A DNA stretch of 49,639 nt from an uncultured Spirochaetaceae bacterium (GCA_964495755.1 CAZBXU010000003.1:1-49639), one strand, 5' to 3'. Positions 20,655-39,587 are shown, counted from the first letter of the stretch. Made by a program: numbers and translations. Notes: generated by a model not told the origin, from the letters alone.

Positions 20655-20701
20655 TTGACAGAAAGGCTCTTTCGTGTTACGAATATCGAAAAGATAACAC
20701 G
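20655..20701 (+). promoter_or_regulatory. Candidate promoter with overlapping NikR-like inverted repeat
   Basis: TTGACA lies at 20655-20660. The inverted repeat is CGTGTTA (20673-20679), 15 nt, then TAACACG (20695-20701), which also reads GTGTTAC-N13-aTAACAC. It ends 33 nt before the cbiM ATG. Confidence 0.45.
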
Positions 20702-20733
20702 TTTGCAGTTCTAACTGGAAGAGGAGGAAGCTG

Positions 20734-21387
20734 ATGCATATCCCTGACGGTCTGGTAAGCGCACCGATCAACATCGCAACCGCGGTGGTCGCGATGGGGG
20801 TCGGGGCGGCCGCCGTGGTTCGCGCCCGGCGTACGTTGGGCGAAAAAAAGGTCCCGATCCTGGGCGTTTCGGCCGCCTTTGTCTTCGCCGCTCAAATGCT
20901 TAACTTTCCCGTAGCCGCCGGAACGAGCGGGCATTTTCTGGGGGCGCTGCTCGTAGCGCTCCTGCTCGGACCCCTGAACGGCTTTCTCGTGATGGCGGTG
21001 GTCCTGGTGATCCAGAGCCTGCTGTTCGCCGACGGCGGGCTCACCGCGCTGGGCACGAACATTTTCAACATGGGGATCGTCGGCGGCCTCGGGGGCTACG
21101 GCCTGTTCCGCCTGCTGACATTGACGCTGCCTCGGCGGCGGGGCGTCTTTGTGGCCGCTGCGGCCGTGTCGGCTTGGTTCTCGGTCGTGCTGGCCGCGTC
21201 GGTCTGCGCTGTGGAGCTGGCTCTGTCCGGGACTTCTCCCCTGGCGCTGGCACTGCCCGCCATGGCCGGCGTACATGTGCTGATCGGAATCGGAGAGGGG
21301 ATCATCTCCGCCGTGGTCGTATCCCTGATGCTCGGAGTACGCCCCGACCTGGTTTTGGCCTGGAAGCCCCAGGAGGTTAAGGCATGA
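20734..21387 (+). CDS. cbiM: ECF transporter substrate-capture component CbiM/NikM
   Basis: The N-terminus MHIPDG is the metal-binding Met1-His2 signature. The protein is 217 aa with multiple TM helices. Confidence 0.85.
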   Translation: MHIPDGLVSAPINIATAVVAMGVGAAAVVRARRTLGEKKVPILGVSAAFVFAAQMLNFPVAAGTSGHFLGALLVALLLGPLNGFLVMAVVLVIQSLLFADGGLTALGTNIFNMGIVGGLGGYGLFRLLTLTLPRRRGVFVAAAAVSAWFSVVLAASVCAVELALSGTSPLALALPAMAGVHVLIGIGEGIISAVVVSLMLGVRPDLVLAWKPQEVKA

Positions 21388-21719
21388 AGAATGTCCTTCC
21401 GTTTCTTCCAGCCGCTCTAGGTGTGTGCCTGCTGCTGGCTTCGTTTTTAGCCCCCCTCGCTTCCTCCTCCCCGGACGGGCTGGAACGGGTCGCCGAAGAC
21501 CAGGGGTTCCTGGAGCAGGTCGAGGGGAGCCAGGTGTGGAAGGCCGCGCCGGTCCCCGACTACGAGATGCCGGGGGTAGGCCGGAGCGGCATAGCCACCG
21601 CTCTAGCGGGTGTAGCCGGAACCTTGATCGTCTTCGGGCTCGCCCTTGGGCTCGGCAGGCTGCTGGTCCGCGGGCGTGGTGCCGGCCGGTCCCGGGCCGG
21701 AGGATCGATCTCCCGTTGA
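21384..21719 (+). CDS. PDGLE domain membrane protein (CbiN/NikN-like accessory component)
   Basis: It contains a literal SPDGLE motif after a signal/TM segment and has a C-terminal TM helix. Its start overlaps the cbiM stop. Confidence 0.75.
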   Translation: MKNVLPFLPAALGVCLLLASFLAPLASSSPDGLERVAEDQGFLEQVEGSQVWKAAPVPDYEMPGVGRSGIATALAGVAGTLIVFGLALGLGRLLVRGRGAGRSRAGGSISR

Positions 21720-22492
21720 ACCTGGATTTCCTGGACCGGTATGTCGGCCTGGACAGCCCGGTGCACCATCTGGACGCTCGGGTCAAGGTCCTGGTCGTCC
21801 TGATGTGCCTGTCTCTGTGGGTTACGACTCCTCCCGGCCGGTGGATTCCCCTTGGGTTCGCGCTTTTATTCCTTGCAGCGGCAGCGATGCTTTCGAGGGT
21901 ACCTCTGCGCTACCTGCTTGCCCGCAGTCTGCCGGTAGCCGGATTCGTAGCGCTCATGGCCGTGCTTGCGCCGTTCCGTCCGGGCGGTGAGGTTCTGGTT
22001 CGGCTCACACCCGCTGTGTCCGTCAGCAAGGAAGGTGCCAGGCTCTATGCCGCGGTCATCTCCAAAGCCTTTCTGTCGGTTGCCGCCGTGGTGCTGCTTT
22101 CTTCCACCACGTCCTTCGCGGGGATTCTCAAGGCGATGGAGCGGCTGCGGGTGCCCCGCACCCTGGTCCTGATCGTCAGTTTTGCCTATCGGTACCTGTT
22201 TGTCATCGTCGAGGAGGCCCTGCGCATGAAAAGGGCCCGGGACGCCCGCCTGTTCGGCGGCCGCTGGTTGTGGCACTCCACGGTGATCGGCCGGATGATC
22301 GGCACGCTGTTCCTGCACAGCTACGAACGGGCCGAACGGGTCTACCAGGCCATGATCGCAAGAGGATACGATCCGGGGATACGGCCTCGGCAGGCCCAGC
22401 CGCTGTCGGCCGGCGATCTGGCGGTGCTGGTCGGTGTGCCCGTCGTGGTGCTCGGTTCGCGCTTCCTCCCCTGGCTGGCGGGCTGCCGGTGA
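21716..22492 (+). CDS. cbiQ: ECF transporter transmembrane component CbiQ
   Basis: The CbiQ-like sequence begins LNLDFLDRYVGLDSPVHHLDARVK. The TTG at 21716 overlaps the upstream stop (TTGA). The longer tracked ORF from 21425 overlaps the PDGLE gene and looks like an artefact. Confidence 0.75.
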   Translation: MNLDFLDRYVGLDSPVHHLDARVKVLVVLMCLSLWVTTPPGRWIPLGFALLFLAAAAMLSRVPLRYLLARSLPVAGFVALMAVLAPFRPGGEVLVRLTPAVSVSKEGARLYAAVISKAFLSVAAVVLLSSTTSFAGILKAMERLRVPRTLVLIVSFAYRYLFVIVEEALRMKRARDARLFGGRWLWHSTVIGRMIGTLFLHSYERAERVYQAMIARGYDPGIRPRQAQPLSAGDLAVLVGVPVVVLGSRFLPWLAGCR

Positions 22493-23334: not shown

Positions 23335-24837
23335 TTAAGAAAAGACAGGATTCGAAAAAAGGCGAACCGGTTTTCCACCTGTCTTTGAAGGGGCCAGGGT
23401 AAAGAATGTGCACTTATCGCTGGGAGGGACTTCTTCGGGGAAATGGGTCACAATAATAACAGGCCCATAGTGCATATCGAGCAGGGTCATGAACTTCCTC
23501 CAGAGGCATCTACGGCCCTCTGCATCGAGACCGGCAAAGGGTTCATCCAAGAGCATCACCTCGGGGAAGCGGGCAAAACAGCGGGCGAATCCCAACCGTT
23601 TTTTCATTCCCCCGGATAATTCGTCGGGCGTTCCGCTCTCCCAGCCGGAAAGGCCTGCCTCGCCGAGAAGGTAACGAGCGAATGCCAGGGAATCTGCTGA
23701 TGGAACCCTTGAGTAAATCAAAGGCAGGGCAACGTTCCAGGCGTTGGATCGCCAGGGTAGAAACCGGTCGTCCTGAAACACAAAGCCAAGTCTCTCAGGT
23801 CGCCTGATCGTTCCGGATATCGGTTTGAGCAGTCCTGCCGCTGTATACAGTAACGTGGTCTTTCCCAATCCGGAATCCCCTGAGATCACAACGATTTCAT
23901 CAGGCCTTACGGTCAGACTGATACGATCGAGAAGAAGCTCGGATTCCGGATAAGCGAAGCTTACATCCTGGAGAACGACCTCCTGTTTGCTAGATTCCTG
24001 TATAAACGCTCGTTTCAGCTGTTCAAGAGTCTCGGGACAAGGGATTATAGTACCCTTTCGTTCGACCCGTTTCCCGGGACGTGCTAGTGCCTGCTCTAAC
24101 CTTCCAAGAAGCCGGCTGGCAATTAAAATGAGAAAAATGAGAATCAAGCCCCAGGCAAAGACCTTCCGCATCTGCAAAGACTGGAAGGAAGCTTGAACCT
24201 GAAATCCAATTCCGTTGTTAGCGCCGAAGTACTCGGCGATGACCGATGCCTTGATTCCCAACACAATACCTAGTTTTACTGCGGCAGCAAGGAACGGTTT
24301 GAGATGGGGCAGAACGAGCTCCCGGAGTTTGGGGTATACCCCGGGAGCGAACACATCGAGCATCTGTTCAAGGTGATGGGGAACGGCTTTCACACCCTCG
24401 TTCACGTTCAACGCCACGATGGGAAAACAGATCAGGGCTATGACCAAAACAGGGGCAAGGTGCCCAATGCCCAGCACGAGGATCAATGGGATGATCCACA
24501 GCAGCGGAGGTATACCTTGCAGGATTAGAACCAAAGGGCGAAATAGAATCTCCACATTCTGATTGAGCCCGGACAGAATTCCCGCTGCTGAACCGCAGGC
24601 AAGGGCGAGGGAAAAACCCGCTGCAACCCTGAGGACCGTAATCAGGATCTGTTTCCAGACAAATCCTTGTGAAAGGAGCGACACCGTCTCTACGGCAGTA
24701 TGCCAAGGAGAAGGAATGATATATGATCCGGTTAGTAAACTCGCCGTGCTCCAGATTGTAAGTAGGAGTAAACTGCCAAGAACATAAAGGATAGTCCTTT
24801 TTCGCTTCTTCGAAACAACTTGATCCATCACGGGCAA
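23335..24837 (-). CDS. Fused ABC importer-type permease (TauC/SsuC-like) and ATPase
   Basis: The N-terminal ~260 aa is a BPD_transp_1-type membrane domain with an EAA-like loop (NVNEGVKAVPHHLEQMLDVFAPG). The C-terminal NBD has GDSGLGKTT, LSGGMKKR and MLLDEPFAGLD. Confidence 0.8.
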   Translation of the reverse strand: MPVMDQVVSKKRKRTILYVLGSLLLLTIWSTASLLTGSYIIPSPWHTAVETVSLLSQGFVWKQILITVLRVAAGFSLALACGSAAGILSGLNQNVEILFRPLVLILQGIPPLLWIIPLILVLGIGHLAPVLVIALICFPIVALNVNEGVKAVPHHLEQMLDVFAPGVYPKLRELVLPHLKPFLAAAVKLGIVLGIKASVIAEYFGANNGIGFQVQASFQSLQMRKVFAWGLILIFLILIASRLLGRLEQALARPGKRVERKGTIIPCPETLEQLKRAFIQESSKQEVVLQDVSFAYPESELLLDRISLTVRPDEIVVISGDSGLGKTTLLYTAAGLLKPISGTIRRPERLGFVFQDDRFLPWRSNAWNVALPLIYSRVPSADSLAFARYLLGEAGLSGWESGTPDELSGGMKKRLGFARCFARFPEVMLLDEPFAGLDAEGRRCLWRKFMTLLDMHYGPVIIVTHFPEEVPPSDKCTFFTLAPSKTGGKPVRLFSNPVFS

Positions 24838-25847
24838 AAGAAGAACTCCTCTTGAAGCTCACCCCGTTTCCCGGGCAGAAACCCTTTGACATCCTCATAG
24901 TAAGCCTTAACGCGGTGTCGATTTTCCTCCGGGGAAGGAACATGGAACAAGGTTTTGGCGATTGAATGGGCAATCACCTCTTCGCAAAAGCCCAGGGCCG
25001 TAGAAAATTTCTTGGCTGCTTTTTCAGGATCAGACACAACCTGCTGGGTAGCCGCACGCCACTGGACTATAAATTCCTTCAACATCTCGGCGTTCCTTTC
25101 TGCGTAGCTGCGGGTCGTGAACAGGCTTACCTGAGGAGACAGCGCTTCGCCTTGATTCGCGGCAGCCCAGGCCTGTTTGTAGTCGATGAAGCGTTGCAGA
25201 CCCCGATTGATGACCAGTTCCGAGGCCAGAGGCTCAGGAATCGGTGCGGCGTCGATCCGGCCTTTTAGAAGCAGCGCCACGGTTTGAGGTAAAGGAGAGT
25301 AGATAATAGTAAGGTCCCGATCCGGGTCGATATCCTGTTTATGCAGGAAAAAACGGGTCTGAAAATCCAGAGGGGAACCCGGGAACGGCAGAGCGATCCG
25401 CTTCCCCGCAAGATCAGCAATGCTTTCGATACGCGGACAGTCGATGGAGCCAATCAGATAGGAGATACCCCATACACCCGTGCTGATCATCAGGATGGGG
25501 CTGCCGGACAAGTAGTTCTCCCACCCCTGGCTGCTTCCGGTAAGAAGCAGATCTACCTCGCCGCGAAGCAACCGCGCCAAAGCCTGAGCATGGTTGAGGA
25601 AGATATCTGCCTGGATATCTACACCCGGAAGTGGATCCTCCTCGGCAAGGAGAAGTAGAGGCAGGCTCGAGTTGGAGGGAGGCACCAACAGGCGTACAAC
25701 AGGGGTAACCGGTTGCGCAGAGCAGGCTCCAATCCCGACAAGACCGAAGAATACAAGACCGAAGAATACAAGAGCAATAAGAAATCTCGCAGAACGGTAA
25801 TAGTGGTGATCTCTTTTGATCTGAAATAACGGGGTGACACAGATCAT
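24828..25847 (-). CDS. NMT1/TauA/SsuA-type ABC substrate-binding lipoprotein
   Basis: Signal peptide with lipobox GIGACS and an NMT1-like core (LAGKRIALPFPGSPLDF). It has an ATGA overlap with the upstream kinase gene. Confidence 0.75.
   Translation of the reverse strand: MICVTPLFQIKRDHHYYRSARFLIALVFFGLVFFGLVGIGACSAQPVTPVVRLLVPPSNSSLPLLLLAEEDPLPGVDIQADIFLNHAQALARLLRGEVDLLLTGSSQGWENYLSGSPILMISTGVWGISYLIGSIDCPRIESIADLAGKRIALPFPGSPLDFQTRFFLHKQDIDPDRDLTIIYSPLPQTVALLLKGRIDAAPIPEPLASELVINRGLQRFIDYKQAWAAANQGEALSPQVSLFTTRSYAERNAEMLKEFIVQWRAATQQVVSDPEKAAKKFSTALGFCEEVIAHSIAKTLFHVPSPEENRHRVKAYYEDVKGFLPGKRGELQEEFFFCP
25741..25770. repeat. Perfect 15-bp tandem duplication inside the binding-protein signal peptide
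   Basis: AGACCGAAGAATACA occurs twice back to back. On the minus strand it encodes the doubled LVFFG-LVFFG. Confidence 0.9.
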
Positions 25848-27319
25848 GACAGGGGGATTTCCACTTTAAAGATGCTGCCCTTGCCGGGAGCACTCTCCGC
25901 ATTTATTTGCCCCTGGTGCAGCTCGATCAGCCGCTTGACCAGACTCAGGCCCAGACCCGTCCCTGGTATATCAGCTGTGTGTTCGTTCTTGACACGGTAA
26001 AATTCGTCGAAGACTTTGTCCAACTCCGGCTGAGTCATTCCGATCCCCGTGTCCTGCACACTGACGGCAGCGTACAGGCCGTTTTGAGCCACCTGGACTG
26101 TCACCTTACCCTGCTCCGCGGTGTATTTGATCGCATTGTCGATTAAATTGGAGAAGACCAGGAGCAGGGCTTCCCTGTCAGCCAGGGCGGTTTTTTCTTT
26201 CTCGGGGAGAAGCTCATTCAGGGTAAGATCGATACCCTTGCCGGCGGCTCTCTCTCTCGCTGCTTCCACAGCCTCGCGAACGATTTCAACCATATCTACA
26301 CTGGTACGGTGCAGCTCAAAATTGCCGGTCTCAATGGCGGTGATGCTGAGAAGCTCCGATATGAGAATACGCAGCGTCCTCACCCGGAGGTGCGAACGTT
26401 CTATCATGTGTCTTTCCTCCTCCGGATCATGCCCTGCCAACCCGCTGAGCAGCAGGTTGAGCCACCCTTCAGTTGCCGCCAGCGGGCTTTTCAGCTCGTG
26501 GGCCACCATGGAGACGAACATCGATTTGGCGGTCTCCAACTTCTTCAGCTCGGTGATGTCCCGAAATACCGCCACCGCCCCTGAGGTCTCACCGCCCGGT
26601 TCAATCACCGGACTCACGTTTACCATATAGGTGTTTTTCCCGATTGCCAGCTCCCGGGAGACGATCCTGGGACCGGGGTCCCCCTCAAGGACTTCATCGA
26701 TCAGCTCATCTGTTTTCGGATACTCCAGCTCGGAGAGGGAGAAAGGCACGTTTTGCCTCGATGCCTTTGGGAAAATACGGGCGGCGGTGTTGTTACGCAG
26801 CACGACCAGCTTCTCCAGGTTGATGACCAGCAGACCATCGGTGATACATTTGAGGATCGTACTGCACTTCGATCGCTCCGAGGCGACTTCAAGCAGGCGC
26901 TTCTCCCTTTCCTCCCGCAGACGTTTGGCCTCGAGAGCCAGAGCCTGACGCTCCAGGCCGTTGCGGATGGCAAGCAGGAGCTCCTCCGGGGTGAAGGGCT
27001 TGGGGATATAGCTGTAGGCGCCCTGCTTGGTGCCCTCCACCGCCGTATCGATGGTGGCGTAGGCGGTGATGACGATCAGGAGAAGATCAGGATCCAGCGC
27101 CCTGAGCCTCTTGATCAACTCCAGGCCCCCGAGACGGGGCATCAGCAGGTCGACGAGGGCGAATGAATAGTGGGGGTCATTTTCGAAGATCTCGAGAGCC
27201 TCGATCCCATCACAGGCAGTGGTTACCTCGAATCCTTCTTCCGTAAGGATTTTACGGCAGCCTTCACGGATGCCGAACTCGTCATCCACAATCAGGGCAC
27301 GAATCCCATGGTCGTTCAT
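25844..27319 (-). CDS. Soluble hybrid sensor: receiver - PAS - HisKA - HATPase_c
   Basis: The REC domain has ALVDLLMP. A PAS-like segment follows, then the H-box MVAHELKSPLAATEG and the G-boxes DTGIGM and GTGLGLSLV. There are no TM helices. Confidence 0.85.
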   Translation of the reverse strand: MNDHGIRALIVDDEFGIREGCRKILTEEGFEVTTACDGIEALEIFENDPHYSFALVDLLMPRLGGLELIKRLRALDPDLLLIVITAYATIDTAVEGTKQGAYSYIPKPFTPEELLLAIRNGLERQALALEAKRLREEREKRLLEVASERSKCSTILKCITDGLLVINLEKLVVLRNNTAARIFPKASRQNVPFSLSELEYPKTDELIDEVLEGDPGPRIVSRELAIGKNTYMVNVSPVIEPGGETSGAVAVFRDITELKKLETAKSMFVSMVAHELKSPLAATEGWLNLLLSGLAGHDPEEERHMIERSHLRVRTLRILISELLSITAIETGNFELHRTSVDMVEIVREAVEAARERAAGKGIDLTLNELLPEKEKTALADREALLLVFSNLIDNAIKYTAEQGKVTVQVAQNGLYAAVSVQDTGIGMTQPELDKVFDEFYRVKNEHTADIPGTGLGLSLVKRLIELHQGQINAESAPGKGSIFKVEIPLS

Positions 27320-27714
27320 GCGAGGAGCTCCTCCACTTTGCTAATAAGCACCTCGGGGGAGACGGGCTTGTCGAAGAAGGCGTCGGCCCGCATCGCTTCC
27401 AGCTCCTCTTGGCTTCGCGGGTTGAAGTCGAATCCCCGCCTACTGGCCGCCGCTGTCACTATGATTACCGGTATGTCTGTGAACCTGGGGTCGGATTTGA
27501 TTTTTTTGGCCAGAGAGAACCCGGAGTCGAGACTCTTCATCATCAGATCCGTCACCACCAGCTTCGGCGCCTCGGCCTCCATGCTCTGCCAGGCTTGATC
27601 GGCGTCGCTGAAGCAGCTGACCCGGTACCCTTTCGCTTTCAATATGCCGCTGTTCATCTCCAGGAAATCAATGTCGTCGTCAACCAGCACGATCGATGGT
27701 TTTGTTCCTGTCAT
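27316..27714 (-). CDS. Stand-alone response-regulator receiver protein
   Basis: 132 aa, REC domain only (IVLVDDD..., phospho-Asp context LVVTDLMM, IPVIIVTA). Confidence 0.85.
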   Translation of the reverse strand: MTGTKPSIVLVDDDIDFLEMNSGILKAKGYRVSCFSDADQAWQSMEAEAPKLVVTDLMMKSLDSGFSLAKKIKSDPRFTDIPVIIVTAAASRRGFDFNPRSQEELEAMRADAFFDKPVSPEVLISKVEELLA

Positions 27715-27718
27715 GCCT

Positions 27719-28114
27719 CTACCCTCGCAAGATCTTGTTGATCACATCGAGCAACAGCAGCGGCTCTACCGGTTTCTCGATCAGGGCATCAACGGGTAAC
27801 CAGGTCTCGTCAGGCTCGATATGGAAAGGAATTGTGTCGCTTACCGATGTGATCATGACCAGAGGAATGGTTTTTGTGTGCTCGCAATTTCGCAGTTCCC
27901 GGGAAAGATTGAATCCGATAACCTCACTTTCCATCATCATGTCCAGGATGATCAGGTCCGGTTTCCTGCTGTTGACCTGCTCCAGACATTCCCTGCCGCT
28001 GTAGGCAGTAAGTACCCTGTAGCCGTGATCGGCGAGCAGCTTGCGGTGCATCTCCATGAAATCCGCATCGTCGTCCACCAACAGCACTGTTTTTCTTACT
28101 CTTCGCGTGCTCAT
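27719..28114 (-). CDS. Stand-alone response-regulator receiver protein
   Basis: 131 aa, REC domain only (VLLVDDD..., LIILDMMM, IPLVMITS). It is a paralogue of the next gene and has an ATGA overlap with the upstream kinase. Confidence 0.85.
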   Translation of the reverse strand: MSTRRVRKTVLLVDDDADFMEMHRKLLADHGYRVLTAYSGRECLEQVNSRKPDLIILDMMMESEVIGFNLSRELRNCEHTKTIPLVMITSVSDTIPFHIEPDETWLPVDALIEKPVEPLLLLDVINKILRG

Positions 28115-30135
28115 GGCGGCTCTCCTATTCCAACCATCTGTTTTGTCTTGGCGTCATTCAGCGGCAGCCGGATGGTGAAGGCAGTCCCTTTTCCGACGTC
28201 GCTGTCAACCGAGATCTCTCCTGAGTGCATTTTTACCACCCCATACACGATGGACAGCCCCATTCCCGTTCCCTTGCCGAGCTGCTTGGTGGTGAAGAAG
28301 GGAGTGAAGATCTCAGAAAGGACCTCCTTCGGAATCCCTTGGCCCGTGTCACGGACCAGGATTTCTAAACAGTCATCATCTTCGGGTTTGCGAACCGAGA
28401 TCACGACCTTCCCTGCTTTTTCGATGGCGTCGATCCCGTTTTGGATCAGGTTTACCAGCATCTGCCGGATCTGGTCAGCGTCGATTTTTACCTCGGGAAG
28501 GTCAGGCTGGATTTCGCTTTCTATAGTAACTTGCGAATCCTGGGCCTTCAGCCGCGTATTGGCGATGACCTCTCCTATCAGCGCAGCCAGGTTCGTTTGT
28601 TCCCTTGCCACGCGGGACTGGCGGGCAAAGTCCAGAAGGCCCCGCATGATGTTGCGGCAGCGCGTCGCCTCGCTCAGGATCATCTGCACGTCCTCCGACC
28701 CGGCATCCTCTTTCTTGCGGTGTTTCAGGAGCATGTGGGAGTACAGAAGGATCGTGCTCAGCGGATTGTTGATTTCATGGGCCACTCCGGCGGAGATCTG
28801 GCCCATGGAGGCCAGACGCTCGGTCTGAATCAGACGGCTCTGCGCCGAAGCCAGCTCCCGGTGGGACTCCTGCAGCTCCTTCAGAGTCGTTTCCAGCTCC
28901 TCCACCAGGTAGGGCAGGCACATCTCGATCTCAGCCAGGCCCTGGCACACGGCGATGGCCTTCTCGCGACAGGTGGGATATCCGCAGGAGCCGCAGTTCA
29001 GCTGATCCTCCGGCCCGAACTTGCGCATGGCCTTGAGGGCCTCGGCGATTTCCTCTTCGGAAGGCTGCGGCAGCAGCACGGTCTGGCGGGTAAACTGTCG
29101 GGAAAGGTCCAGATCGTCGAACTCCGCCAGAGCTTCTGTCAGCTCCCGCCGGACGGTGAAACGATTCTGCTCGATGATGTAATCTGTAAGCAGTTCTTTA
29201 CGGGTAAAGACACTCATTTCCACGGGTATCTTCGGCCCGTTGATGCAGCCCTCGCAGAACAGCAGGTCGAACAGCTTGGCCTTGCTCTTGCCCGCCTCCA
29301 GCTCTTTGAGCACCTCCAGCACCCTGTCCTTGCCTTCGGTGATCAGAACGTCGTTTTCCAGAATATCCGCCTGCAGCCCTGTGGTGCGCAGCAGTCCTCC
29401 GGAGATGGGGAAGGTCCTGCCCAGGTAGCAGGGAGGCCCGTCGAAGTCGCTGATCTTTTCCTGTTCCGGATCGATCCCGGCCTCAGAAACCATGGCGAGC
29501 ATTTCCTCGAAGGTGAGAACCGCATCGACGGTTCCCTGCACGAAGGGGTCCTTGATCTCGTTCTTCTTGGCGATGCAGGGTCCGATGAAGACGATCCGAA
29601 CCCCGGAGCCGTAGCGTTGGCGGATGGCTCTGCCCACGGCAATCATGGGACTGACGATGGGAGCCAGGGCATCGTGAAGGGACGGCATGTATTTCTCTAT
29701 GTAGGACACGATGGCCGGACAGGGTGTGGAGATCACGTATTTACCATTCTGGAGTGCGTCTTTGAATACTTTGGAGTATTCCCGGCTGATCAACTCGGCT
29801 CCGAAGGAGACTTCCCAGATATCCCCGAATCCCAGCTTGCGCAAGCTGGCGACGATCCGTCCGGGATGGGTGGGGTGGAAGGCAACGGGAAAGGAAGGGG
29901 CCAAACAGGCAAAGGTCCTCTCCTTGCCCTCCAGGAGGTTCCGAACCAGCATGGTGCTGTCCTCGATCCGTTTGGCCTTCTGGGCGCAGACCTTCACGCA
30001 GTTTCCGCAGCAGATGCACTGCTCCTCGATGACGGTGGCCTGTCCTCCGATGACCTTGATCGCCTTGGCCGGGCATTCCCGAACGCAGGAGTAGCAGCGT
30101 TTGCACTTCTCCGGAATCGTCTCAACGATGCCCAT
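28111..30135 (-). CDS. Sensory [FeFe]-hydrogenase-like protein fused to a histidine kinase (HydS-HK, group C-like)
   Basis: It has two 4Fe-4S motifs (CKRCYSCVRECP, CICCGNCVKVCA). The H-cluster-like motifs are degenerate: ISTPCPAIV, IGPCIAKKNE and LFCEGCINGP. CGSCGYPTC-x16-C follows, then the H-box GVAHEINNPL and HATPase_c (DTGQGIP, GTGMGLSIV). Confidence 0.8.
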   Translation of the reverse strand: MGIVETIPEKCKRCYSCVRECPAKAIKVIGGQATVIEEQCICCGNCVKVCAQKAKRIEDSTMLVRNLLEGKERTFACLAPSFPVAFHPTHPGRIVASLRKLGFGDIWEVSFGAELISREYSKVFKDALQNGKYVISTPCPAIVSYIEKYMPSLHDALAPIVSPMIAVGRAIRQRYGSGVRIVFIGPCIAKKNEIKDPFVQGTVDAVLTFEEMLAMVSEAGIDPEQEKISDFDGPPCYLGRTFPISGGLLRTTGLQADILENDVLITEGKDRVLEVLKELEAGKSKAKLFDLLFCEGCINGPKIPVEMSVFTRKELLTDYIIEQNRFTVRRELTEALAEFDDLDLSRQFTRQTVLLPQPSEEEIAEALKAMRKFGPEDQLNCGSCGYPTCREKAIAVCQGLAEIEMCLPYLVEELETTLKELQESHRELASAQSRLIQTERLASMGQISAGVAHEINNPLSTILLYSHMLLKHRKKEDAGSEDVQMILSEATRCRNIMRGLLDFARQSRVAREQTNLAALIGEVIANTRLKAQDSQVTIESEIQPDLPEVKIDADQIRQMLVNLIQNGIDAIEKAGKVVISVRKPEDDDCLEILVRDTGQGIPKEVLSEIFTPFFTTKQLGKGTGMGLSIVYGVVKMHSGEISVDSDVGKGTAFTIRLPLNDAKTKQMVGIGEPP

Positions 30136-30149
30136 CGTTATCCCCTATC

Positions 30150-31928
30150 TCACACTCGCGCTCTCGGGGTGTAGGAGGTGTGCAGCAGGTGGTGGGACTT
30201 CTCCCCGAGGGGTTTCTTCAAGTACTGCTCGTAGATCAACTTGATCTCCGGGTTGTGGTGGGAGGCACGCACCTCTTTGCCCTCATCCTCCTTGTAGATG
30301 GCGGCGATACGGGCCTTGCGTACCTCGTCGCTGGTCAGCCGGGGTTGGCCGCCGCCGCCGATACACCCGCCGGGACAGGTCATGATCTCCACGAAGTGAT
30401 ACTGAGCTTCCGGAGAACCGCTCTTGATGTGCTCGATCACCTTCCGGGCGTTGCCCAGCCCGTGGGCCACGGCCACTTTCAGGGTCACACCTTCGAGGAA
30501 AGACCACTCCGGCAATGTGTCAGTGATTGTGAGGGCTGCTTCCTTTACTCCCTCCAGTCCCATGATCGGTGTGACGTGCAGATTGGGGAAGGGCAGTGGT
30601 CGCCCGGTCACCAGCTCGTAAGCTGTGCGCAGGGCTGCCTCCATGACGCCACCCGTGTTGGCAAAGATATCCGCAGCTCCCGAGGACATGCCCAGGAGTC
30701 TATCCATCTTTTCATCGGGAAGGCCGGCAAAATCGATCCCCGCCTGTTTGATCATTCGCCCCAGCTCTCGGGTGGTGAGCACGATGTCGACGTCTCTCAC
30801 CCCGCTGCCGTTCATCTCCGGCCGCCCGGCCTCGTACTTCTTGGCCGTGCAGGGCATCACCGATACGACCACGATCTCCTCGGGACGCTTGCCTAAGCTT
30901 TCAGCGTAGTAGGTCTTGGCCACCGCGCCGAACATCTGTTGAGGGCTCTTACAGGTGGAGATGTTCGGTAGAAACTCGGGGTAGAAGTGCTCGGCATATT
31001 TGATCCAGCCCGGCGAGCAGCTGGTGAACTGGGGCAGGGCTACAGATTTTCCCTCCACCAGGGCCTGCTTCAATCGGCTGAGCAGCTCGTTGCCCTCCTC
31101 CATGATGGTCAGATCGGCGGCGAAGTTGGTGTCGAATACGCCGTCGAAGCCGAGGCGCCGGAGTGCGCTGACCATTTTTCCTGTCACCAGGGTTCCGGGG
31201 GGATAATCGAAGCACTCCCCCAGGGCGGCCCGGATGGCCGGAGCGGTCTGCACCACAACGTGTTTTGCAGGGTCGTCCAGGGCGGCCCAGACCTCATCGA
31301 TCTGGTCCCGCTCGATGATCGCTCCTACGGGGCAGACGGCGGCACACTGGCCGCACTGCACACAGACCACGTCCTCCAGGTTGCTGCAGAAGGCCGGTCC
31401 GATCACCGAGGCGAATCCCCGATTCTGGGGAAAGATTGCCGCCACGCCCTGGACCTGCCCGCAGACGGTTACGCAGCGGCGGCAGAGGATGCACTTGGCC
31501 GAATCCCTCACCAGCGCCGCAGTGCTGACATCGGTGAGCCGGACACTTTTTTCCCCGGAAAACTCGATCTCCCGAATCCCCAGTTCCTTGGCCAGGGACT
31601 GAAGCTCGCAGTCTCCGTTCCGGTCGCAGATCTGACAGTCTCCCTCGTGGTCTGAGAGGATCAACTCTACCACCGTTCGGCGGGCTTCCCGAACCCGTCG
31701 GGTGTTGGTATGGACTGCCATCCCCTCTGCTGCGGGAGTGACGCAGGAGGGGACCAGTGTCTTTGCTCCCTCCACTTCCACCAGGCAGACCCGGCAGGCG
31801 CCGATGGCCTGGACATTTTCCAGATAGCACAAGGTGGGAATGTGGATCCCGGCCTGGCGGGCCGCTTCAAGCAGGGTGGTCCCTTCGGGAACCTCGATCT
31901 TCCTATTGTCTATACTTAGTGTTGGCAT
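30150..31928 (-). CDS. hydA: [FeFe] hydrogenase catalytic subunit, M3 architecture, non-canonical L1 motif
   Basis: The N-terminus has a 2Fe-2S domain, the His-ligated cluster HEGDCQICDRNGDC and two 4Fe-4S motifs. L1 reads FTSCSPGW, L2 VMPCTAKKYE and L3 EIMTCPGGCIGGGGQP. Confidence 0.85.
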   Translation of the reverse strand: MPTLSIDNRKIEVPEGTTLLEAARQAGIHIPTLCYLENVQAIGACRVCLVEVEGAKTLVPSCVTPAAEGMAVHTNTRRVREARRTVVELILSDHEGDCQICDRNGDCELQSLAKELGIREIEFSGEKSVRLTDVSTAALVRDSAKCILCRRCVTVCGQVQGVAAIFPQNRGFASVIGPAFCSNLEDVVCVQCGQCAAVCPVGAIIERDQIDEVWAALDDPAKHVVVQTAPAIRAALGECFDYPPGTLVTGKMVSALRRLGFDGVFDTNFAADLTIMEEGNELLSRLKQALVEGKSVALPQFTSCSPGWIKYAEHFYPEFLPNISTCKSPQQMFGAVAKTYYAESLGKRPEEIVVVSVMPCTAKKYEAGRPEMNGSGVRDVDIVLTTRELGRMIKQAGIDFAGLPDEKMDRLLGMSSGAADIFANTGGVMEAALRTAYELVTGRPLPFPNLHVTPIMGLEGVKEAALTITDTLPEWSFLEGVTLKVAVAHGLGNARKVIEHIKSGSPEAQYHFVEIMTCPGGCIGGGGQPRLTSDEVRKARIAAIYKEDEGKEVRASHHNPEIKLIYEQYLKKPLGEKSHHLLHTSYTPRARV

Positions 31929-31932
31929 ACCG

Positions 31933-34900
31933 TTACTCTCCTGATTCTGGTTCTCTATAGTCGCAGCGCAAACAGCGCTTTGCTTCCGCTAAAGCCACGT
32001 TTCGGGTCCAGGTGGCCTCTACCTCGGTGAAGCTCCCCTTGCGTTTGCTAACGGGTATGAGCTTCGGGGCCGCCCGAGGTGTCTCGACGGGATCCGCCTC
32101 GGGATCGAAGAAGGTGTCTACCTCGTGGTCCTTCCGCCAGAAGGCCCGATTTTTGCCGCCGAGGAACAGATCGATGCCTACGGCTGCCTTCTCACCGGCT
32201 GCCACCGCCTCGATCACCGAGGAGGGACCGCTGACGGCATCCCCACCGGCAAAGATCCAGGATTCCGAGGTTTGTCCATTGTTCGAGTCCACTGCGATGT
32301 AGCCCATCTCGTTGAGCTTCAAGCGTACCCCGTCGAAGATTTTCGCCGGGTCGAGGGTCTGACCGATTGCCGGGATCAGCAGGTCCGCAGGCAGCGTGTA
32401 CTCGGAGTCCTTCTTAGCCACCGGCCGGCGCCTTCCGCTCCTGTCGAACTCACCGAGCTCCATGCTCTGCAGACGCACCTGCTCAAGCTTACCTCTGTTG
32501 GCGGTCAGCTCGACAGGGGCAGCGAGGAACTCGAAGCGAACTCCCTCTTTCTCAGCCTCCTCGACCTCTTCTTCATAGGCGGGCATCTCGGCCCGGGTGC
32601 GGCGGTAGACCACGGTCACAGTCTCGGCGCCGAGGCGCAGGGCGGTGCGGGCGGCGTCCACCGCGGCGTTTCCGCCTCCCACCACTACCACGTTGCCGCC
32701 GACCTTCTGCTTGCCGTTGAGGTTGTACGCCCTTAAGAATTCGATGGCTTCGGTGCATCCCGGCATGGTTTCTCCCTCCAGGCGCAGGCCCATGCCGTCG
32801 GGGGCGCCTACGGCGAGGAACAGCGCATCATATCCCTGATCCTTAAGCTTCTCGATAGTGAAGTCCCTGCCCAGACGTTTTCCGGTTTTGATCTTCACCC
32901 CGAGCTTACGAATCATGTCGACGTCCTTACCGAGAAGCTCCCGGGGCAGCCTGTAGGCGGGAATGGCTTGAGCCAGCATCCCCCCCGGCATATCTTGAGC
33001 CTCGAAGACTTCGGGCCGGTAACCCAGTCGGGCCAGGAAATAGGCGCAGGCCAGACCCGCCGGTCCCGCTCCAACAATAGCTATCTTGCGCCCGGCTGCC
33101 TGCTCGTCGCTAAGAAAATCGGGCAGCTGAAGCTCCTTCTCCTGGTCGGAGAGGAAGCGCTTCAGAGCTCGGATAGACAGAGCCTCGTCCAGCGTGGAGC
33201 GGCGACACTTGCTTTCACAGGGGTGAAAGCAGACCCTGGAGCACACAGATACGAAGGGGTTGCGCTCCCGATGCAGCTTCAGCGCCTCTTCGTAGCGCTT
33301 CTCGGCGATCAGGCTGACGTACCCGGGTACATCGACCCCGGCGGGGCAGGCGTTCTGACATGGCGCCCGGACCAGCTCCGAACAGATCCCGGCCACGCAT
33401 TTCTTGTCCCGGATATGGGCCTCGAACTCCCCGCGGAAGTGCCGGATAGCCGAGAGCACAGGATTAGGAGCGGTCTGGCCCAGTCCACAGAGCGCCGTAT
33501 CCTTGATCACCTTACCCAGGCGAATCAGCCGTTCTATATCTCCCTCCTCGCCTTTACCGGCGCAGATGCGCTCGAGGATCTCCAGCATCCGCTTGGTGCC
33601 GATCCGGCAGGGGGCGCACTTGCCGCAGGACTCGTCCTGAACGAACTCGAGGAAGAAGCGGGCCATGTCCACCATGCAGGAGTCGTCGTCCATGATGATC
33701 AACCCGCCGGAGCCCATGATGGCTCCAAGCTCGGTCACACTCTCATAGTCCACGGGCACGTTCAGATGCTCCTTGGGGATGCAGCCGCCGGAGGGCCCGC
33801 CGATCTGGGCGGCTTTGAACTTCTTGCCGTCGGGGATCCCGCCGCCGATGTCGTAAACGATCTCCCCCAGGGGTATGCCAATGGGGACCTCCACCAGGCC
33901 GGTGTTCTTCACCGCCCCGGCTAGGGCAAACACCTTGGTGCCCTTGCTCATCTCGGTTCCGAAAGAGGCGTACCAGTCCGCTCCCTTCAAAAGAATGACC
34001 GGGATGTTGGCATAGGTCTCCACATTGTTGAGCAGGCTTGGCATGTCCCAAAGCCCCTTCTGGGCGGGGAAGGGAGGCCGGGGCCGCGGCTCTCCACGGT
34101 TGCCCTCGATGGAGGTCATCAGGGCCGTTTCTTCCCCGCATACGAAGGCACCGCTTCCCATGCGGATTTCCAGGTCGAAATCGAAGCCGGTGCCCATGAT
34201 GTTCTGGCCCAAGAGCCCGTATTCCCTTGCCTGTTGGATCGCCTTTCCCAGACGGTCGACCGCCAGGGGGTACTCGGCCCGGACGTACACGTAGCCTTGG
34301 GAGGCACCGATGGCGTAACCGGCGATGGCCATGGCCTCGATCACGCCGTGCGGGTCTCCCTCCAGCACGCTGCGGTCCATGAACGCTCCCGGGTCACCCT
34401 CATCGGCGTTGCAGAGCACGTACTTCACTTCTCCGGGAGATCTGCGGCAGAATTCCCACTTCAGGCCAGTGGGAAAGCCTGCACCGCCGCGGCCGCGCAG
34501 GCCCGAACGCTTGATCTCGTCGATCACCGCTTCCGGCTTCATCTCGGTAAGAGCCTTGGCCAGGGCCCGGTATCCGTCCCGGGCGATATACTCCTCGATG
34601 CGCAGGGGGTCGATCAGGCCGCAGTTGCGCAGCACGATCTTCACCTGTTTGCGGAAGAAGGACAACTCCTGCAGCGGCGGGGTCACCTGTCCAGCGACTC
34701 CCGCTTCGGCGGCCAGCTTGGAAACCACCCTGCCTTTGAGAAGGTGCTCCTCCACGATTTCCTCGGCATTTTCAGGCTTGAGGTTCTGGTAGAGGACGCC
34801 GTCCGGGTAGATTACAGCCACCGGGCCGGCAGCGCAGGGGCCTAGACAGCCTGTCTCGATAACCCGGATCTCTCCGTCCAGGCCGAAACGGTCTATCGCC

Positions 34901-34989
34901 TCCTTGAAGGCGGCGGACAGCTCAAGGGCTCCCGAGGCCACACAGCTGGCACCGGTACATATCAAAACGTTGCTTCGTGAACGATTCAT
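31933..34989 (-). CDS. hydB: HydB (NuoF-like, FMN/NADH) fused to a GltD/NfnB-like FAD/NAD(P)H oxidoreductase module
   Basis: 1018 aa. It opens with a thioredoxin-like 2Fe-2S domain (CTGASC...GCLGPC), then the NuoF core (GGAGFPTGLKW, ESCGKCAPCR). GltD-type Fe-S (CQNACPAGVDVPGY...CSRVCFHPCESKC) and two Rossmann motifs (IAIVGAGPAGLACAY, VVVVGGGNAAVDAART) follow. Confidence 0.8.
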   Translation of the reverse strand: MNRSRSNVLICTGASCVASGALELSAAFKEAIDRFGLDGEIRVIETGCLGPCAAGPVAVIYPDGVLYQNLKPENAEEIVEEHLLKGRVVSKLAAEAGVAGQVTPPLQELSFFRKQVKIVLRNCGLIDPLRIEEYIARDGYRALAKALTEMKPEAVIDEIKRSGLRGRGGAGFPTGLKWEFCRRSPGEVKYVLCNADEGDPGAFMDRSVLEGDPHGVIEAMAIAGYAIGASQGYVYVRAEYPLAVDRLGKAIQQAREYGLLGQNIMGTGFDFDLEIRMGSGAFVCGEETALMTSIEGNRGEPRPRPPFPAQKGLWDMPSLLNNVETYANIPVILLKGADWYASFGTEMSKGTKVFALAGAVKNTGLVEVPIGIPLGEIVYDIGGGIPDGKKFKAAQIGGPSGGCIPKEHLNVPVDYESVTELGAIMGSGGLIIMDDDSCMVDMARFFLEFVQDESCGKCAPCRIGTKRMLEILERICAGKGEEGDIERLIRLGKVIKDTALCGLGQTAPNPVLSAIRHFRGEFEAHIRDKKCVAGICSELVRAPCQNACPAGVDVPGYVSLIAEKRYEEALKLHRERNPFVSVCSRVCFHPCESKCRRSTLDEALSIRALKRFLSDQEKELQLPDFLSDEQAAGRKIAIVGAGPAGLACAYFLARLGYRPEVFEAQDMPGGMLAQAIPAYRLPRELLGKDVDMIRKLGVKIKTGKRLGRDFTIEKLKDQGYDALFLAVGAPDGMGLRLEGETMPGCTEAIEFLRAYNLNGKQKVGGNVVVVGGGNAAVDAARTALRLGAETVTVVYRRTRAEMPAYEEEVEEAEKEGVRFEFLAAPVELTANRGKLEQVRLQSMELGEFDRSGRRRPVAKKDSEYTLPADLLIPAIGQTLDPAKIFDGVRLKLNEMGYIAVDSNNGQTSESWIFAGGDAVSGPSSVIEAVAAGEKAAVGIDLFLGGKNRAFWRKDHEVDTFFDPEADPVETPRAAPKLIPVSKRKGSFTEVEATWTRNVALAEAKRCLRCDYREPESGE

Positions 34990-34993
34990 TGTC

Positions 34994-35365
34994 TTATTCC
35001 TCCAAGATGTATTCCTGAACAGGCTTGCCCTTCAGGACGTGGCTGGCGACGATCTCCCGTGCCTTTTCCCGGTTCAGGCGGACGTACAGGTAGTCCAATC
35101 CGCTCTTGTCGCTGAAAGTGAGCATGGGCTCCTGGTCGCACAGCCCTAAGCAGCCGGACTGGTGCAGGGTGACGTTCTCTACTCCCGCACCGGCCAGCTG
35201 CTCGCTGAGCTCGGCCATGATGTCCCGGGCCCCCGCTGCGATACCGCAGGTGCCCATGTGTACGGTGATGCGGATCTCCTTGGGACCGCTGCGCACATCC
35301 ACCTCGCCCCGGGCTTGGTCCCGGAGTTTTTTCAGGTCCTCCGGATTCTTGATCTTGACGCTCAT
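34994..35365 (-). CDS. Thioredoxin-like [2Fe-2S] ferredoxin
   Basis: 123 aa with HMGTCGIAAG...SGCLGLCDQEP, typical of the small ferredoxin found in HydABC clusters. It has an ATGA overlap with hydC. Confidence 0.8.
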   Translation of the reverse strand: MSVKIKNPEDLKKLRDQARGEVDVRSGPKEIRITVHMGTCGIAAGARDIMAELSEQLAGAGVENVTLHQSGCLGLCDQEPMLTFSDKSGLDYLYVRLNREKAREIVASHVLKGKPVQEYILEE

Positions 35366-35922
35366 ACTGTAGCCTCCTTGACAACGCTTTCACGGTTACG
35401 ATACTCGTCGAGGATGGCGCGGATTCGTTGAGGTTTGACCCGCTGGTGTACCTCCTCGTCGATCATGATCGTGGGGGCAAGGCCGCAAGCCCCGAAGCAG
35501 CGGGCCACCTCGAGGCTGAATTGCCGGTCCTCTGTGGTACTTCCCACGTCGATCTTCAGCTCCTGCTTGAGGTTGTCCAGTACCCGCTTGCCCCCGCGGA
35601 CGTAGCAGGCGGTGCCCAGGCAGACTCGGATCAAGTGCTTGCCCCGAGGAACGGTGGAGAAGAAGGAATAGAAACCTACCACTCCGGCCACCTCGCTGTA
35701 CGATTTGCCCAAGCGCAGGGCTATACGCTTTAGAGCTCCTTCGGGTAGATAGCCGAAGATCCCCTGAGCGATCTGCAGCACGGGAATCAGTGCCCCGGGC
35801 TTTCCCTGATACTCCTCCAGGACTTCGTCCAGCCTGGAGAATAGCTCCTCATCGGAGACGGTCTCCCCGCAGCAGGTATCTATCTTTGCGGGATTAGCTG
35901 AAATTTCAGCTTGGTTATTCAT
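35362..35922 (-). CDS. hydC: HydC (NuoE-like [2Fe-2S] subunit)
   Basis: 186 aa with IRVCLGTACYVRG...VARCFGACGLAP, the NuoE/HoxE Cys pattern. Confidence 0.85.
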   Translation of the reverse strand: MNNQAEISANPAKIDTCCGETVSDEELFSRLDEVLEEYQGKPGALIPVLQIAQGIFGYLPEGALKRIALRLGKSYSEVAGVVGFYSFFSTVPRGKHLIRVCLGTACYVRGGKRVLDNLKQELKIDVGSTTEDRQFSLEVARCFGACGLAPTIMIDEEVHQRVKPQRIRAILDEYRNRESVVKEATV

Positions 35923-35925
35923 GCC

Positions 35926-36495
35926 TCACTCCTTAATCTCAAGGGCTTCAAGACCCTCTTTTATTTGCTGATTAACTTTTCTGGCCACGGCGAGCCGATT
36001 GATCGCGGTCGGAGTGGATCCTCTCTTTCCCTGGAGAACCAGCTCCCGTGAGACCTCTTTGCTCAGAATCATTTGTTCCCGCTCTCCTACCTTCAGGCGG
36101 CAGCGCAGCTCGATGTCCGGATTGGAGGCCACCACCGAAGAGAGGGTGGAAGCCAAATTGCCGAGGGGATTGCGATCCACGTGGGCCAGGCGAAGCGTTG
36201 CCCGCACGGCCAGTCCACCGAGAGGTGAGCGCTCGAGGGCGAGCTCGCCCCCGGCCTGCTCGATCCGGAAACGAAACAAGCTCAAACCCAGGCCTGTCTT
36301 CTTCCCTTTCTTGGTCGTGTAGAAGGGATCCATGGCCCGCGCCACAGGCACGCTCAAACCCGGACCATTGTCCTCCACGGCAATGCGCATCAGATCCCAT
36401 GCGGGTTCCACGGCGATCTCCACAGCCACCACTGTGGCTCCGGCGGCGATTGCGTTTTCGATTAGATCGAGGATGTGCAGGGAAAGCTCACGCAA
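35926..36495 (-). CDS. Stand-alone GHKL (histidine-kinase-like) ATPase domain protein
   Basis: The motifs are LHILDLIENAIAAGA (N-box-like), VEDNGPGL and KKTGLGLSL. I chose the TTG at 36495, with AGGAGG 7 nt upstream, over the tracked ATG at 36561, which overlaps the PHP gene. Confidence 0.7.
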   Translation of the reverse strand: MRELSLHILDLIENAIAAGATVVAVEIAVEPAWDLMRIAVEDNGPGLSVPVARAMDPFYTTKKGKKTGLGLSLFRFRIEQAGGELALERSPLGGLAVRATLRLAHVDRNPLGNLASTLSSVVASNPDIELRCRLKVGEREQMILSKEVSRELVLQGKRGSTPTAINRLAVARKVNQQIKEGLEALEIKE

Positions 36496-39571: not shown

Positions 39572-39587
39572 AGCAAGTATTGTGCCA
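39572..39587 (-). promoter_or_regulatory. Sigma54 (-24/-12) promoter
   Basis: The minus strand reads TGGCAC (39587-39582), AATAC, TTGC (39576-39573), then T. In context this is TTGGCACAATACTTGCT, against the consensus YTGGCACGRNNNTTGCW. It lies 28 nt upstream of the ATG at 39544, directly downstream of an NtrC-type activator gene. Confidence 0.75.

Follow-up and report, generated by a model that had tools for sequence, protein, structure and literature searches.

A predicted group C [FeFe]-hydrogenase sensor kinase encoded with two receivers and a second kinase in a hydrogenase operon of an uncultured Spirochaetaceae bacterium

Introduction

The way in which the putative sensory [FeFe]-hydrogenases pass on a signal is still an open question. 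HydDB distinguishes the [FeFe] groups C1 ('histidine kinase-linked'), C2 ('chemotactic') and C3 ('phosphatase-linked'), all of them putative (PMC5037454). Only two of these sensors have been studied, TmHydS of Thermotoga maritima (group C, M2f) and TamHydS of Thermoanaerobacter mathranii (group D, M2e), neither with a known partner or a measurable output, and a 2026 study of TamHydS regarded the finding of interaction partners as critical (PMC13104023). Kinase-fused group C hydrogenases were mentioned in a HydDB-based survey of Elusimicrobia, and 'BfuT' of Hydrogenedentota is a group C3 hydrogenase with a PAS or His-kinase domain encoded beside bfuA, as in Caldithrix abyssi (PMC11406978). These survey papers mention the fusion only, without receivers, a receiver-kinase or a sigma54 promoter, and in the literature searchable here we found no report of kinase activity, partners, physiology or biochemistry for any fused member. 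Here we describe such a fusion, a 674-amino-acid sensor-kinase (HydS-HK; 'BfuT' with a His-kinase domain), together with the genes that surround it in a stretch of 49,639 nt from an uncultured Spirochaetaceae bacterium (GCA_964495755.1 CAZBXU010000003.1:1-49639), the whole of which is referred to below as the window.

Among [NiFe] enzymes, the HoxBC-HoxJ-HoxA system of Cupriavidus necator (HupUV-HupT-HupR in Rhodobacter) acts on sigma54 hydrogenase promoters (PMC10073562). In it a low-activity hydrogenase serves as H2 sensor and controls a histidine kinase, which in turn controls an NtrC-type activator. By analogy, the sensor-kinase system proposed here would be its [FeFe] counterpart with sensor and kinase in one polypeptide. 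The resemblance is functional only: the sensor described here is an [FeFe] H-domain and not a HoxBC (HupUV) subunit, the metal centre and fold being unrelated, whereas in the [NiFe] system sensor and kinase are separate proteins joined via PAS, with no extra single receivers and no second kinase. Sigma54 activators with Fer4, Fe_hyd_lg_C and FeS input domains have also been listed for Clostridiales (PMC6615313).

Results

Hydrogenase module of the sensor-kinase

All genes of the region, including the four open reading frames (ORFs) of the module, were found by ORF calling on the minus strand (Table 1). A sequence-only reading of the window, made without database searches, had described a sensory hydrogenase domain fused to a histidine kinase and followed by two receivers (REC) and a REC-PAS-kinase; the four ORFs were recovered exactly as it gave them, and each motif it had quoted from the 674-amino-acid protein and from both receivers was located at the expected residue. 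Pfam analysis of the sensor-kinase identified a Fer4 dicluster (residues 4-54), Fe_hyd_lg_C (PF02906, residues 74-301, E 5.7e-49), FeS (PF04060, residues 378-408, E 8e-10), HisKA (PF00512, residues 444-506, E 1.3e-12) and HATPase_c (PF02518, residues 552-660, E 2.9e-28). The H-cluster motifs are L1, ISTPCPAIV (residues 135-143), L2, IGPCIAKKNE (184-193) and L3, LFCEGCINGP (292-301), the last two ligands being spaced CX2C rather than CX3C, and the accessory motif CGSCGYPTC (residues 381-389) is followed after 16 residues by Cys406.

Equivalences with the hydrogenase CpI were obtained by aligning the protein to the canonical HydA encoded in the window and that HydA to CpI (PDB). The cluster ligands Cys139, Cys187, Cys294 and Cys297 correspond to CpI Cys300, Cys355, Cys499 and Cys503, and Lys190 to Lys358 of the [2Fe] pocket. 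In the proton relay, Pro138, Ile116 and Val123 stand at the positions of Cys299, Glu279 and Arg286, and in the second sphere Gly185 and Leu292 replace Met353 and Met497. An alignment-based conservation table of 70 distinct genomes (42-94% identity) showed no variation (70/70) in the 16 cluster cysteines, in the lysine equivalent to Lys358 or in the Gly and Leu that replace Met353 and Met497; the Cys299 position was occupied by Pro in 47 genomes, Ser in 8, Thr in 8, Ala in 5 and Cys in 2. Strict conservation also extended to the APS, SP and GG motifs, which together with the Lys358 equivalent and the four cysteines hold the [2Fe] subcluster. Cys397, which lies inside the C-terminal motif, was rejected as a cluster ligand, being kept in only 47 of the 70 genomes. 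On these alignments the protein has kept the H-cluster ligands and the residues of the [2Fe] pocket and has lost the catalytic proton relay.

The substitutions match those of characterised sensory hydrogenases. TmHydS shares with the sensor-kinase the two N-terminal [4Fe-4S] motifs, the cysteine ligands of the H-domain and the C-terminal Cx2Cx4Cx16C, which is a known cluster motif of groups C and D (PMC8163306), and in both proteins Cys299 and Met353/Met497 are replaced. The replacements differ at the Cys299 position (Pro here, Ala in TmHydS) and at Met497 (Leu here, Ser in TmHydS), and TmHydS lacks a kinase, having a PAS domain at its C terminus. TamHydS has the same layout of three clusters plus an H-cluster, likewise has Leu at Met497 and is encoded beside a bifurcating hydrogenase and a kinase-like ATPase; it differs in lacking a fused output domain and in having Ser rather than Gly at the Met353 position. 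Among HydDB sensory sequences the Cys299 position is Ala in ~43%, Pro in ~10% and Ser in ~10%, and the Met353 position is Gly in ~51% (PMC10055695).

The protein thus has the features of a group C, HydS-type sensor, namely an H-domain with four ligands that has lost the proton-transfer residues and Met353/Met497, two N-terminal [4Fe-4S] motifs with the C-terminal Cx2Cx4Cx16C, and an adjoining group A hydrogenase (A3, bifurcating-type), hydA ending 14 nt upstream. Homologues of this architecture have been assigned to HydDB group C3, with WP_006928132.1 as best hit (PMC11406978). There was no PAS match, and the 35 residues between PF04060 and HisKA are predicted to be helical; the protein is therefore a kinase-fused variant and not a member of the M2f/TmHydS subtype with its C-terminal PAS domain.

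Linker, transmitter and predicted structure

The short coiled coil that the sequence-only reading had placed between the Fe-S motif and the H-box was borne out as a helical linker, Cys406 and His453 being separated by just 46 residues that are predicted to be helical, and on the same grounds a PAS domain hidden in the linker was ruled out. Across the 70 genomes the Cys406-His453 spacing was 46 (56 genomes), 43 (11) or 39 (3), with no other values. These spacings differ by 3, 4 and 7 residues, as expected of a register-sensitive coiled-coil linker, and the linker lengths are hence compatible, at the level of sequence, with a heptad register.

A monomer model was computed with AlphaFold 2 (AF2) from 68 homologues and had a mean predicted local distance difference test score (pLDDT) of 72, the H-domain (pLDDT ~85-96) and the HATPase domain (82-89) being modelled with confidence. 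It contained helices at residues 407-436, 440-476 and 481-505, the first of which begins right behind the last cluster ligand. Pfam, the 70-genome conservation table and the AF2 helices agree on a sensor-type, non-catalytic-looking H-domain joined directly to a kinase without PAS, as had been claimed. In Foldseek searches the halves of the model matched separately, the kinase to ZraS (9jfj, TMt 0.79) and the hydrogenase module to CpI, DdH, TkHydA1 and TmHydA. The PDB sequence and Foldseek matches included no sensory hydrogenase.

The H-box GVAHEINNPL covers residues 450-459, with His453 as phospho-acceptor, and the kinase motifs HEINNPL, NLIQNGIDA, DTGQGI, FTPFFTTK and GTGMGLS were all found. 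His453 was kept in 69 of the 70 genomes and the residues of the HATPase_c boxes in all 70. With the H-box, the N, G1, F and G2 boxes and a co-encoded receiver, the protein has the sequence hallmarks of a HisKA-type sensor kinase. The kinase core matched ZraS (9jfj, E 6e-38) and AtoS (225 bits) best. These NtrB-class kinases, whose DHp-CA core is closest to that of the sensor-kinase, differ from it in being membrane proteins with periplasmic or PAS inputs. The scores were far below the NCBIfam equivalog cut-offs (AtoS, 225 against 646 bits; ZraS, 189 against 479 bits), so that the sensor-kinase is not an AtoS or ZraS orthologue, and NCBIfam provided no family-level name for it. As judged by its motifs, the protein has a complete transmitter of the AtoS/ZraS type, a class normally paired with NtrC-type regulators.

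Partner genes and distribution

The stop codon of the sensor-kinase gene and the start of REC1 overlap by 4 nt. REC1 has the receiver residues Asp14/15, Asp58 (in ILDMMM), Thr89 and Lys114, and REC2 has Asp12/13, Asp56 (in VTDLMM), Thr87 and Lys116; both small receivers possess the complete Asp/Asp/Asp/Thr/Lys set and are paralogues (28% identity, E 4e-23). The 491-amino-acid hybrid kinase has Asp57 in its receiver domain, the H-box VAHELKSPL and a transmitter that is PnpS/PhoR/WalK-like according to NCBIfam. No DNA-binding output domain was found by Pfam within the four-gene module. Two paralogous receivers followed by a REC-PAS-kinase without DNA-binding output, as the sequence-only reading had it, are therefore supported by Pfam and by the pairwise match, and the module is kept across phyla.

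In a scan of one genome per GTDB species, at least 453 genomes were found to encode a relative of the sensor-kinase, and the best 80 of these, nearly all matching over the full length, were used for a comparison of loci. They represent more than 15 phyla, including Spirochaetota, Planctomycetota, Myxococcota, Hydrogenedentota, Omnitrophota, Verrucomicrobiota, Poribacteria, Nitrospiraceae, Ignavibacteriales, Latescibacterota, Gemmatimonadota, Armatimonadota, Calditrichota, Rifleibacteriota, Bacteroidota and others. The nearest relative was encoded in an uncultured Spirochaetaceae metagenome-assembled genome (MAG; 94% identity). In nearly all loci with enough flanking DNA, hydA came first, followed in order by the sensor-kinase gene, one or two genes for small receivers and the gene of a receiver-kinase hybrid. 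The hybrid was kept in all clades; in the most distant one (43-45% identity) it lacks PAS and retains its N-terminal receiver. The best 120 protein clusters (63-99% identity) were likewise full length, all with Fe_hyd_lg_C, FeS, HisKA and HATPase_c, and together with the same architecture in the best 80 loci they rule out an assembly or gene-calling artefact or a one-off fusion.

The arrangement is far beyond chance and recurs in hundreds of genomes. The surveyed kinase fusions, BfuT included, have the same architecture and the same place beside a group A3 hydA; MAG proteins from Hydrogenedentota had 56-58% full-length identity and one from Calditrichaeota had 43% identity, with the same gene order. 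The novelty that the sequence-only reading implied for the fusion was overstated, since the fusion is widespread and had been noted in the literature: the locus is an ordinary member of a widespread class that has been recognised bioinformatically.

In a Planctomycetota MAG (L002, 14375-19783), the signalling module stands between the structural and the maturation genes: directly downstream of it come two HydE/HydG-like radical-SAM genes, a gene for an aspartase-like Lyase_1 protein and the gene for HydF. A full-length homologue with 59% identity and a rearranged hydrogenase cluster (L029, DATKVG010000115.1) was binned as 'Candidatus Bathyarchaeia archaeon', which could be due to mis-binning or to transfer into an archaeon.

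Outputs joined to the same sensor module

A search with residues 1-420 against 1.84 billion proteins yielded, at E <= 1e-30, 1008 cluster representatives (clusters of 50% identity), and the outputs of the best 150 of these 1008 were sorted by local phmmer classification with Pfam on 10 samples. A tail of ~160 amino acids, a TmHydS-like length class, was found in 58 of the 150 (one sampled member, P0168, had no Pfam match in it). A histidine kinase was present in about 44 (34 direct; in the rest it came after PAS or GAF or preceded REC), a sigma54 AAA+ activator in 16 (12 direct, 4 via PAS), GGDEF in three and a HisKA_3 kinase in one; the remaining 28 had PAS only, unassigned tails, or were short or truncated. 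Examples of alternative outputs (P0124, P0145, P0149, P0136, P0169 and P0185) included a GAF-GAF-kinase, a PAS-kinase-REC-REC protein and GGDEF diguanylate cyclases. The one-component sigma54 activators of Clostridiales have the same sensor module (36-48% identity over residues 1-416; P0145 and similar) and differ in that the AAA+ output is fused directly or through PAS, with no histidine kinase. On this domain survey, two Fer4, the H-domain and FeS together form a general-purpose input domain.

The hydrogenase operon

The four module genes lie near the tail of a tightly packed 17-gene hydrogenase operon preceded by a sigma54 element, with 4-nt overlaps or gaps of 4-14 nt. From the promoter the order is DRTGG protein, second hydrogenase-like regulator, DRTGG protein, PHP phosphoesterase, HATPase protein, NuoE-like HydC, small 2Fe-2S protein, HydB and HydA, and after HydA it continues with sensor-kinase, REC1, REC2, REC-PAS-kinase, an NMT1-type binding protein and a permease/ATPase fusion. 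No terminator signals above chance were found in the operon, and the module is predicted from this arrangement to be co-transcribed with the hydrogenase from the sigma54 promoter.

HydA passed the cut-off of NF040763, 'NADH-dependent [FeFe] hydrogenase, group A6', and had 7q4v and 8a6t as best PDB matches, being closest to HydA1 of the solved bifurcating HydABC complexes. Its L1 motif TSCSPGW (residues ~301-308) has Ser at the CpI cluster ligand Cys300; the same motif occurs in the solved HydA1 of A. woodii (7q4v) and is common to 56 of 60 HydA genes adjoining a sensor-kinase. HydB joins a NuoF-like flavoprotein to an NAD(P)/FAD domain resembling GltD, the small subunit of glutamate synthase, a fusion kept in most related loci.

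The second hydrogenase-like regulator, which the sequence-only reading did not mention, has an RsbW/SpoIIAB-like HATPase_c_2 domain, and its H-domain covers profile positions 24-103 only. Group C1 proteins of Hydrogenedentota have been described with an N-terminal HATPase_C and degenerate H-cluster motifs P1-P3 (PMC11406978), and the regulator matches these. The accessory gene order (DRTGG, this regulator, DRTGG, PHP, HATPase) was also found in Spirochaetaceae and Planctomycetota loci. At the other end of the operon, an NMT1/THI5-type solute-binding protein and a fused permease/ATPase component of an ATP-binding cassette (ABC) transporter are encoded at 23335-25847 (-), with a 4-nt overlap with the REC-PAS-kinase gene; this coupling was seen only in Spirochaetaceae loci (L001, L003, L004, L008 and L055).

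The sigma54 promoter and the NtrC-type regulator

The sigma54 promoter postulated for the cluster exists as an exact match (Table 1), ~28 nt upstream of an ATG at 39544 that is the true start of the first operon gene as judged from homologues, and it is conserved in relatives. Two exact matches were observed in the window against 0.04 expected. The element and its flanks were conserved in L001, the closest complete Spirochaetaceae genome. When the pattern TGGCA[CT]-N5-TTGC was searched on the sense strand in 1.13 Mb of related loci, nine of ten sigma54-like matches stood at the head of a hydrogenase operon, these nine coming from at least five phyla (Spirochaetota, Myxococcota, 'Deltaproteobacteria', Phycisphaerae and Latescibacterota). 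The second exact motif in the window, TGGCACCTTCCTTGCT at 22025-22040 (-), is probably due to chance, lying inside an opposite-strand ORF for CbiQ of an energy-coupling factor (ECF) transporter; it is ~240 nt upstream of an unannotated ORF of 369 amino acids (20677-21786). A perfect 12-bp palindrome, CTCCCATGGGAG at ~39822-39833 (-), is located ~235 nt upstream of the sigma54 element and is conserved in L001 (~60-75); it is a candidate NtrC-type activator site or, alternatively, a terminator remnant of the activator gene.

Pfam and NCBIfam (AtoC 366 bits, NtrC 364 bits) confirmed that the NtrC-type regulator reported by the sequence-only reading at 39860-41260 is real, and such a regulator was also adjacent in L001, L039 and L043. 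It is coupled to a gene for a membrane histidine kinase with an AtoS-like transmitter, which has a sigma70-like promoter at 42414-42387 (promoter scan 11/12), and this kinase and the regulator co-occur in the Myxococcota loci L039 and L043.

Table 1 Features of the sensor-kinase, its operon and the adjacent regulatory genes in the window
Feature	Position	Strand	Details and basis
REC-PAS-HisKA-HATPase_c hybrid kinase	25844-27319	-	491 aa; Pfam
REC2, single-domain receiver	27316-27714	-	132 aa; PF00072, E 1e-16
REC1, single-domain receiver	27719-28114	-	131 aa; PF00072, E 1e-17
Sensor-kinase gene (HydS-HK)	28111-30135	-	674 aa; ORF and Pfam architecture
HATPase_c with N, G1, F and G2 boxes	28156-28482	-	PF02518
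HisKA/DHp, phospho-acceptor His453 (HEINNPL)	28618-28806	-	PF00512
Helical signalling linker (predicted)	28807-28917	-	Residues 407-443; leads from the last cluster ligand, Cys406, to the DHp helix
C-terminal accessory [4Fe-4S] motif Cx2Cx4Cx16C	28912-29004	-	Cys381, 384, 389 and 406; PF04060
H-cluster domain	29233-29916	-	Residues 74-301; ligands Cys139, Cys187, Cys294 and Cys297; PF02906, alignments, Foldseek
N-terminal ferredoxin-like domain, two CxxCxxCxxxC motifs	29974-30126	-	Residues 4-54; Cys11/14/17/21 and Cys40/43/46/50; Fer4 matches
HydA	30150-31928	-	NCBIfam NF040763, 891 > 765 bits
HydB, NuoF + GltD-like	31933-34989	-	1018 aa; Pfam
Small 2Fe-2S protein	34994-35365	-	Pfam
HydC/NuoE-like	35362-35922	-	Pfam
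Lone HATPase protein	35926-36561	-	Pfam
PHP phosphoesterase	36488-37258	-	Pfam
DRTGG protein	37255-37638	-	Pfam
Second hydrogenase-like regulator	37605-39353	-	HATPase_c_2 + 2xFer4 + truncated H-domain + FeS; Pfam
DRTGG protein, first operon gene	39191-39544	-	Pfam
Sigma54 -24/-12 promoter TGGCACAATACTTGCT	39572-39587	-	Exact match
NtrC/AtoC-type sigma54 response regulator (REC-AAA+-HTH_8)	39860-41260 (or to 41338)	-	Pfam; NCBIfam
Membrane histidine kinase, AtoS-like transmitter	41265-42368	-	Pfam, NCBIfam

Discussion

We consider it probable, though by no means assured, that the 674-amino-acid protein is a soluble, H2-sensing group C [FeFe] sensor kinase that feeds a two-kinase relay, with feedback on hydrogenase expression as its likely result. 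H2 would react slowly and reversibly with the H-cluster; this reaction, or the reduction state in which it leaves the module, would shift the conformation of the C-terminal cluster domain, and the helical linker would relay this shift to the dimeric transmitter and so switch its kinase/phosphatase balance. The likeliest phospho-acceptors would be the small receiver or receivers and the receiver domain of the REC-(PAS)-kinase, giving a two-kinase relay, because these partners are conserved with the kinase across lineages.

In the Spirochaetaceae lineage the output is probably H2-dependent feedback on hydrogenase expression, exerted via the activator directly or through the relay, because the module and the genes of an NADH/ferredoxin-linked hydrogenase share a sigma54 promoter beside an NtrC-type activator. 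The conserved element, its recurrence at operon heads, the class of the transmitter and the existence of sensor-sigma54 activator fusions make a sigma54-dependent loop probable. A further possible output is post-translational control by the phosphorylated small receivers.

Several points weigh against this interpretation. H-cluster incorporation, H2 reactivity and phosphotransfer are predicted properties of the sensor-kinase. The window contains no genes for the HydEFG maturases, its remainder encoding transporters. In the AF2 model the linker/DHp region, through which the signal would have to pass, was of low confidence, as was the N-terminal ferredoxin domain, because a monomer was modelled without cofactors. 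In TamHydS, 1 atm H2 did not reduce the C-terminal cluster, and activity hardly changed when this cluster was lost (PMC13104023); the direct transmission of H2 or redox state into the kinase that the sequence-only reading implied would thus not have to involve a redox change there. As to the output, the NtrC-type activator is encoded next to a kinase of its own (41265-42368), which the sequence-only reading did not mention; the DHp helix of that kinase differs from the DHp helix of the sensor-kinase at several positions after the His, as read from the sequences; and the activator is absent beside the module in the Planctomycetota relative L002. The feedback on the cluster's own sigma54 promoter that the sequence-only reading had put forward thus keeps the support of the conserved promoter and of the sensor-sigma54 activator fusions, but a direct step from the sensor-kinase to the NtrC-type regulator is more conjectural, because that regulator has its own kinase and is missing from the Planctomycetota relative.

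Such a direct two-component loop, in which the sensor-kinase would phosphorylate the NtrC-type activator and the small receivers and REC-kinase would act as phosphate sinks or tuning side branches, appears rather doubtful to us. It would fit the AtoS/ZraS-like transmitter with its usual NtrC-family pairing, the exact and conserved sigma54 promoter ahead of the operon that encodes the sensor, the fusion of sensor module and sigma54 activator in one polypeptide elsewhere, and the [NiFe] precedent of HoxJ-HoxA. The activator is, however, genetically coupled to a different membrane kinase of the same class and, besides L002, is lacking within 2 kb upstream in L036, L037 and L031; the small REC and the REC-kinase, by contrast, adjoin the sensor-kinase in nearly all loci.

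An unlikely alternative to H2 sensing is that the [4Fe-4S] clusters register how reduced the ferredoxin/NADH pool is, the H-domain, whether or not a [2Fe] subcluster is present, serving as a cluster scaffold only. The missing maturase genes and proton relay would agree with a redox sensor of this kind, as would the lack of response to H2 of the C-terminal cluster of TamHydS, and the truncated H-domain of the second hydrogenase-like regulator shows that such scaffolds can degenerate. Against this stand the strict conservation of the residues that hold the [2Fe] subcluster, the HydE, HydG and HydF genes adjacent to the module in the Planctomycetota relative, and the functional H-cluster bound by TmHydS and TamHydS, which have the same substitutions. 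That the protein is instead an additional catalytic or structural subunit ('T') of the bifurcating hydrogenase with a minor or vestigial kinase domain, as the naming of BfuT as a Bfu subunit in the Hydrogenedentota survey and its place next to hydA in nearly all loci might suggest, is highly improbable given the loss of the proton pathway, the retention of the kinase boxes and phospho-acceptor His in 69-70 of the 70 genomes, the co-conservation of dedicated receivers and the absence of such a subunit from the solved HydABC complexes.

Returning to the sensor-kinase as an H2 sensor that feeds a relay, a broader proposal can be made only tentatively. Conserved in more than 15 phyla, the four-gene set might be a two-kinase phosphorelay that responds to H2 and perhaps controls bifurcating hydrogenases at the level of transcription, by way of sigma54 activators, as well as post-translationally, by phospho-receivers acting on the hydrogenase or on the PHP, DRTGG and HATPase proteins. 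The path of the signal would then lead from the C-terminal cluster domain into a register-sensitive helix and would include no PAS domain.

What is new beyond the literature is that a small receiver and a receiver-kinase are strictly co-conserved with the sensor-kinase, that the linker lengths are compatible with heptads, that the sigma54 promoter recurs, and the range of outputs (kinase, sigma54 activator, GGDEF) found on the same sensor module. A specialist would not be surprised by the fusion, yet the protein is a good handle on the question of [FeFe] sensing: the kinase-fused variant has a built-in output that can be assayed, in the form of autophosphorylation and phosphotransfer, together with obvious candidate partners. 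It is also widespread in fermenting and syntrophic bacteria of sediments, peat and digesters, where the H2 partial pressure governs metabolism. If the proposed phosphorelay is true, its kinase output would be the first direct biochemical read-out of an [FeFe] sensory hydrogenase converting H2 binding to a signal.

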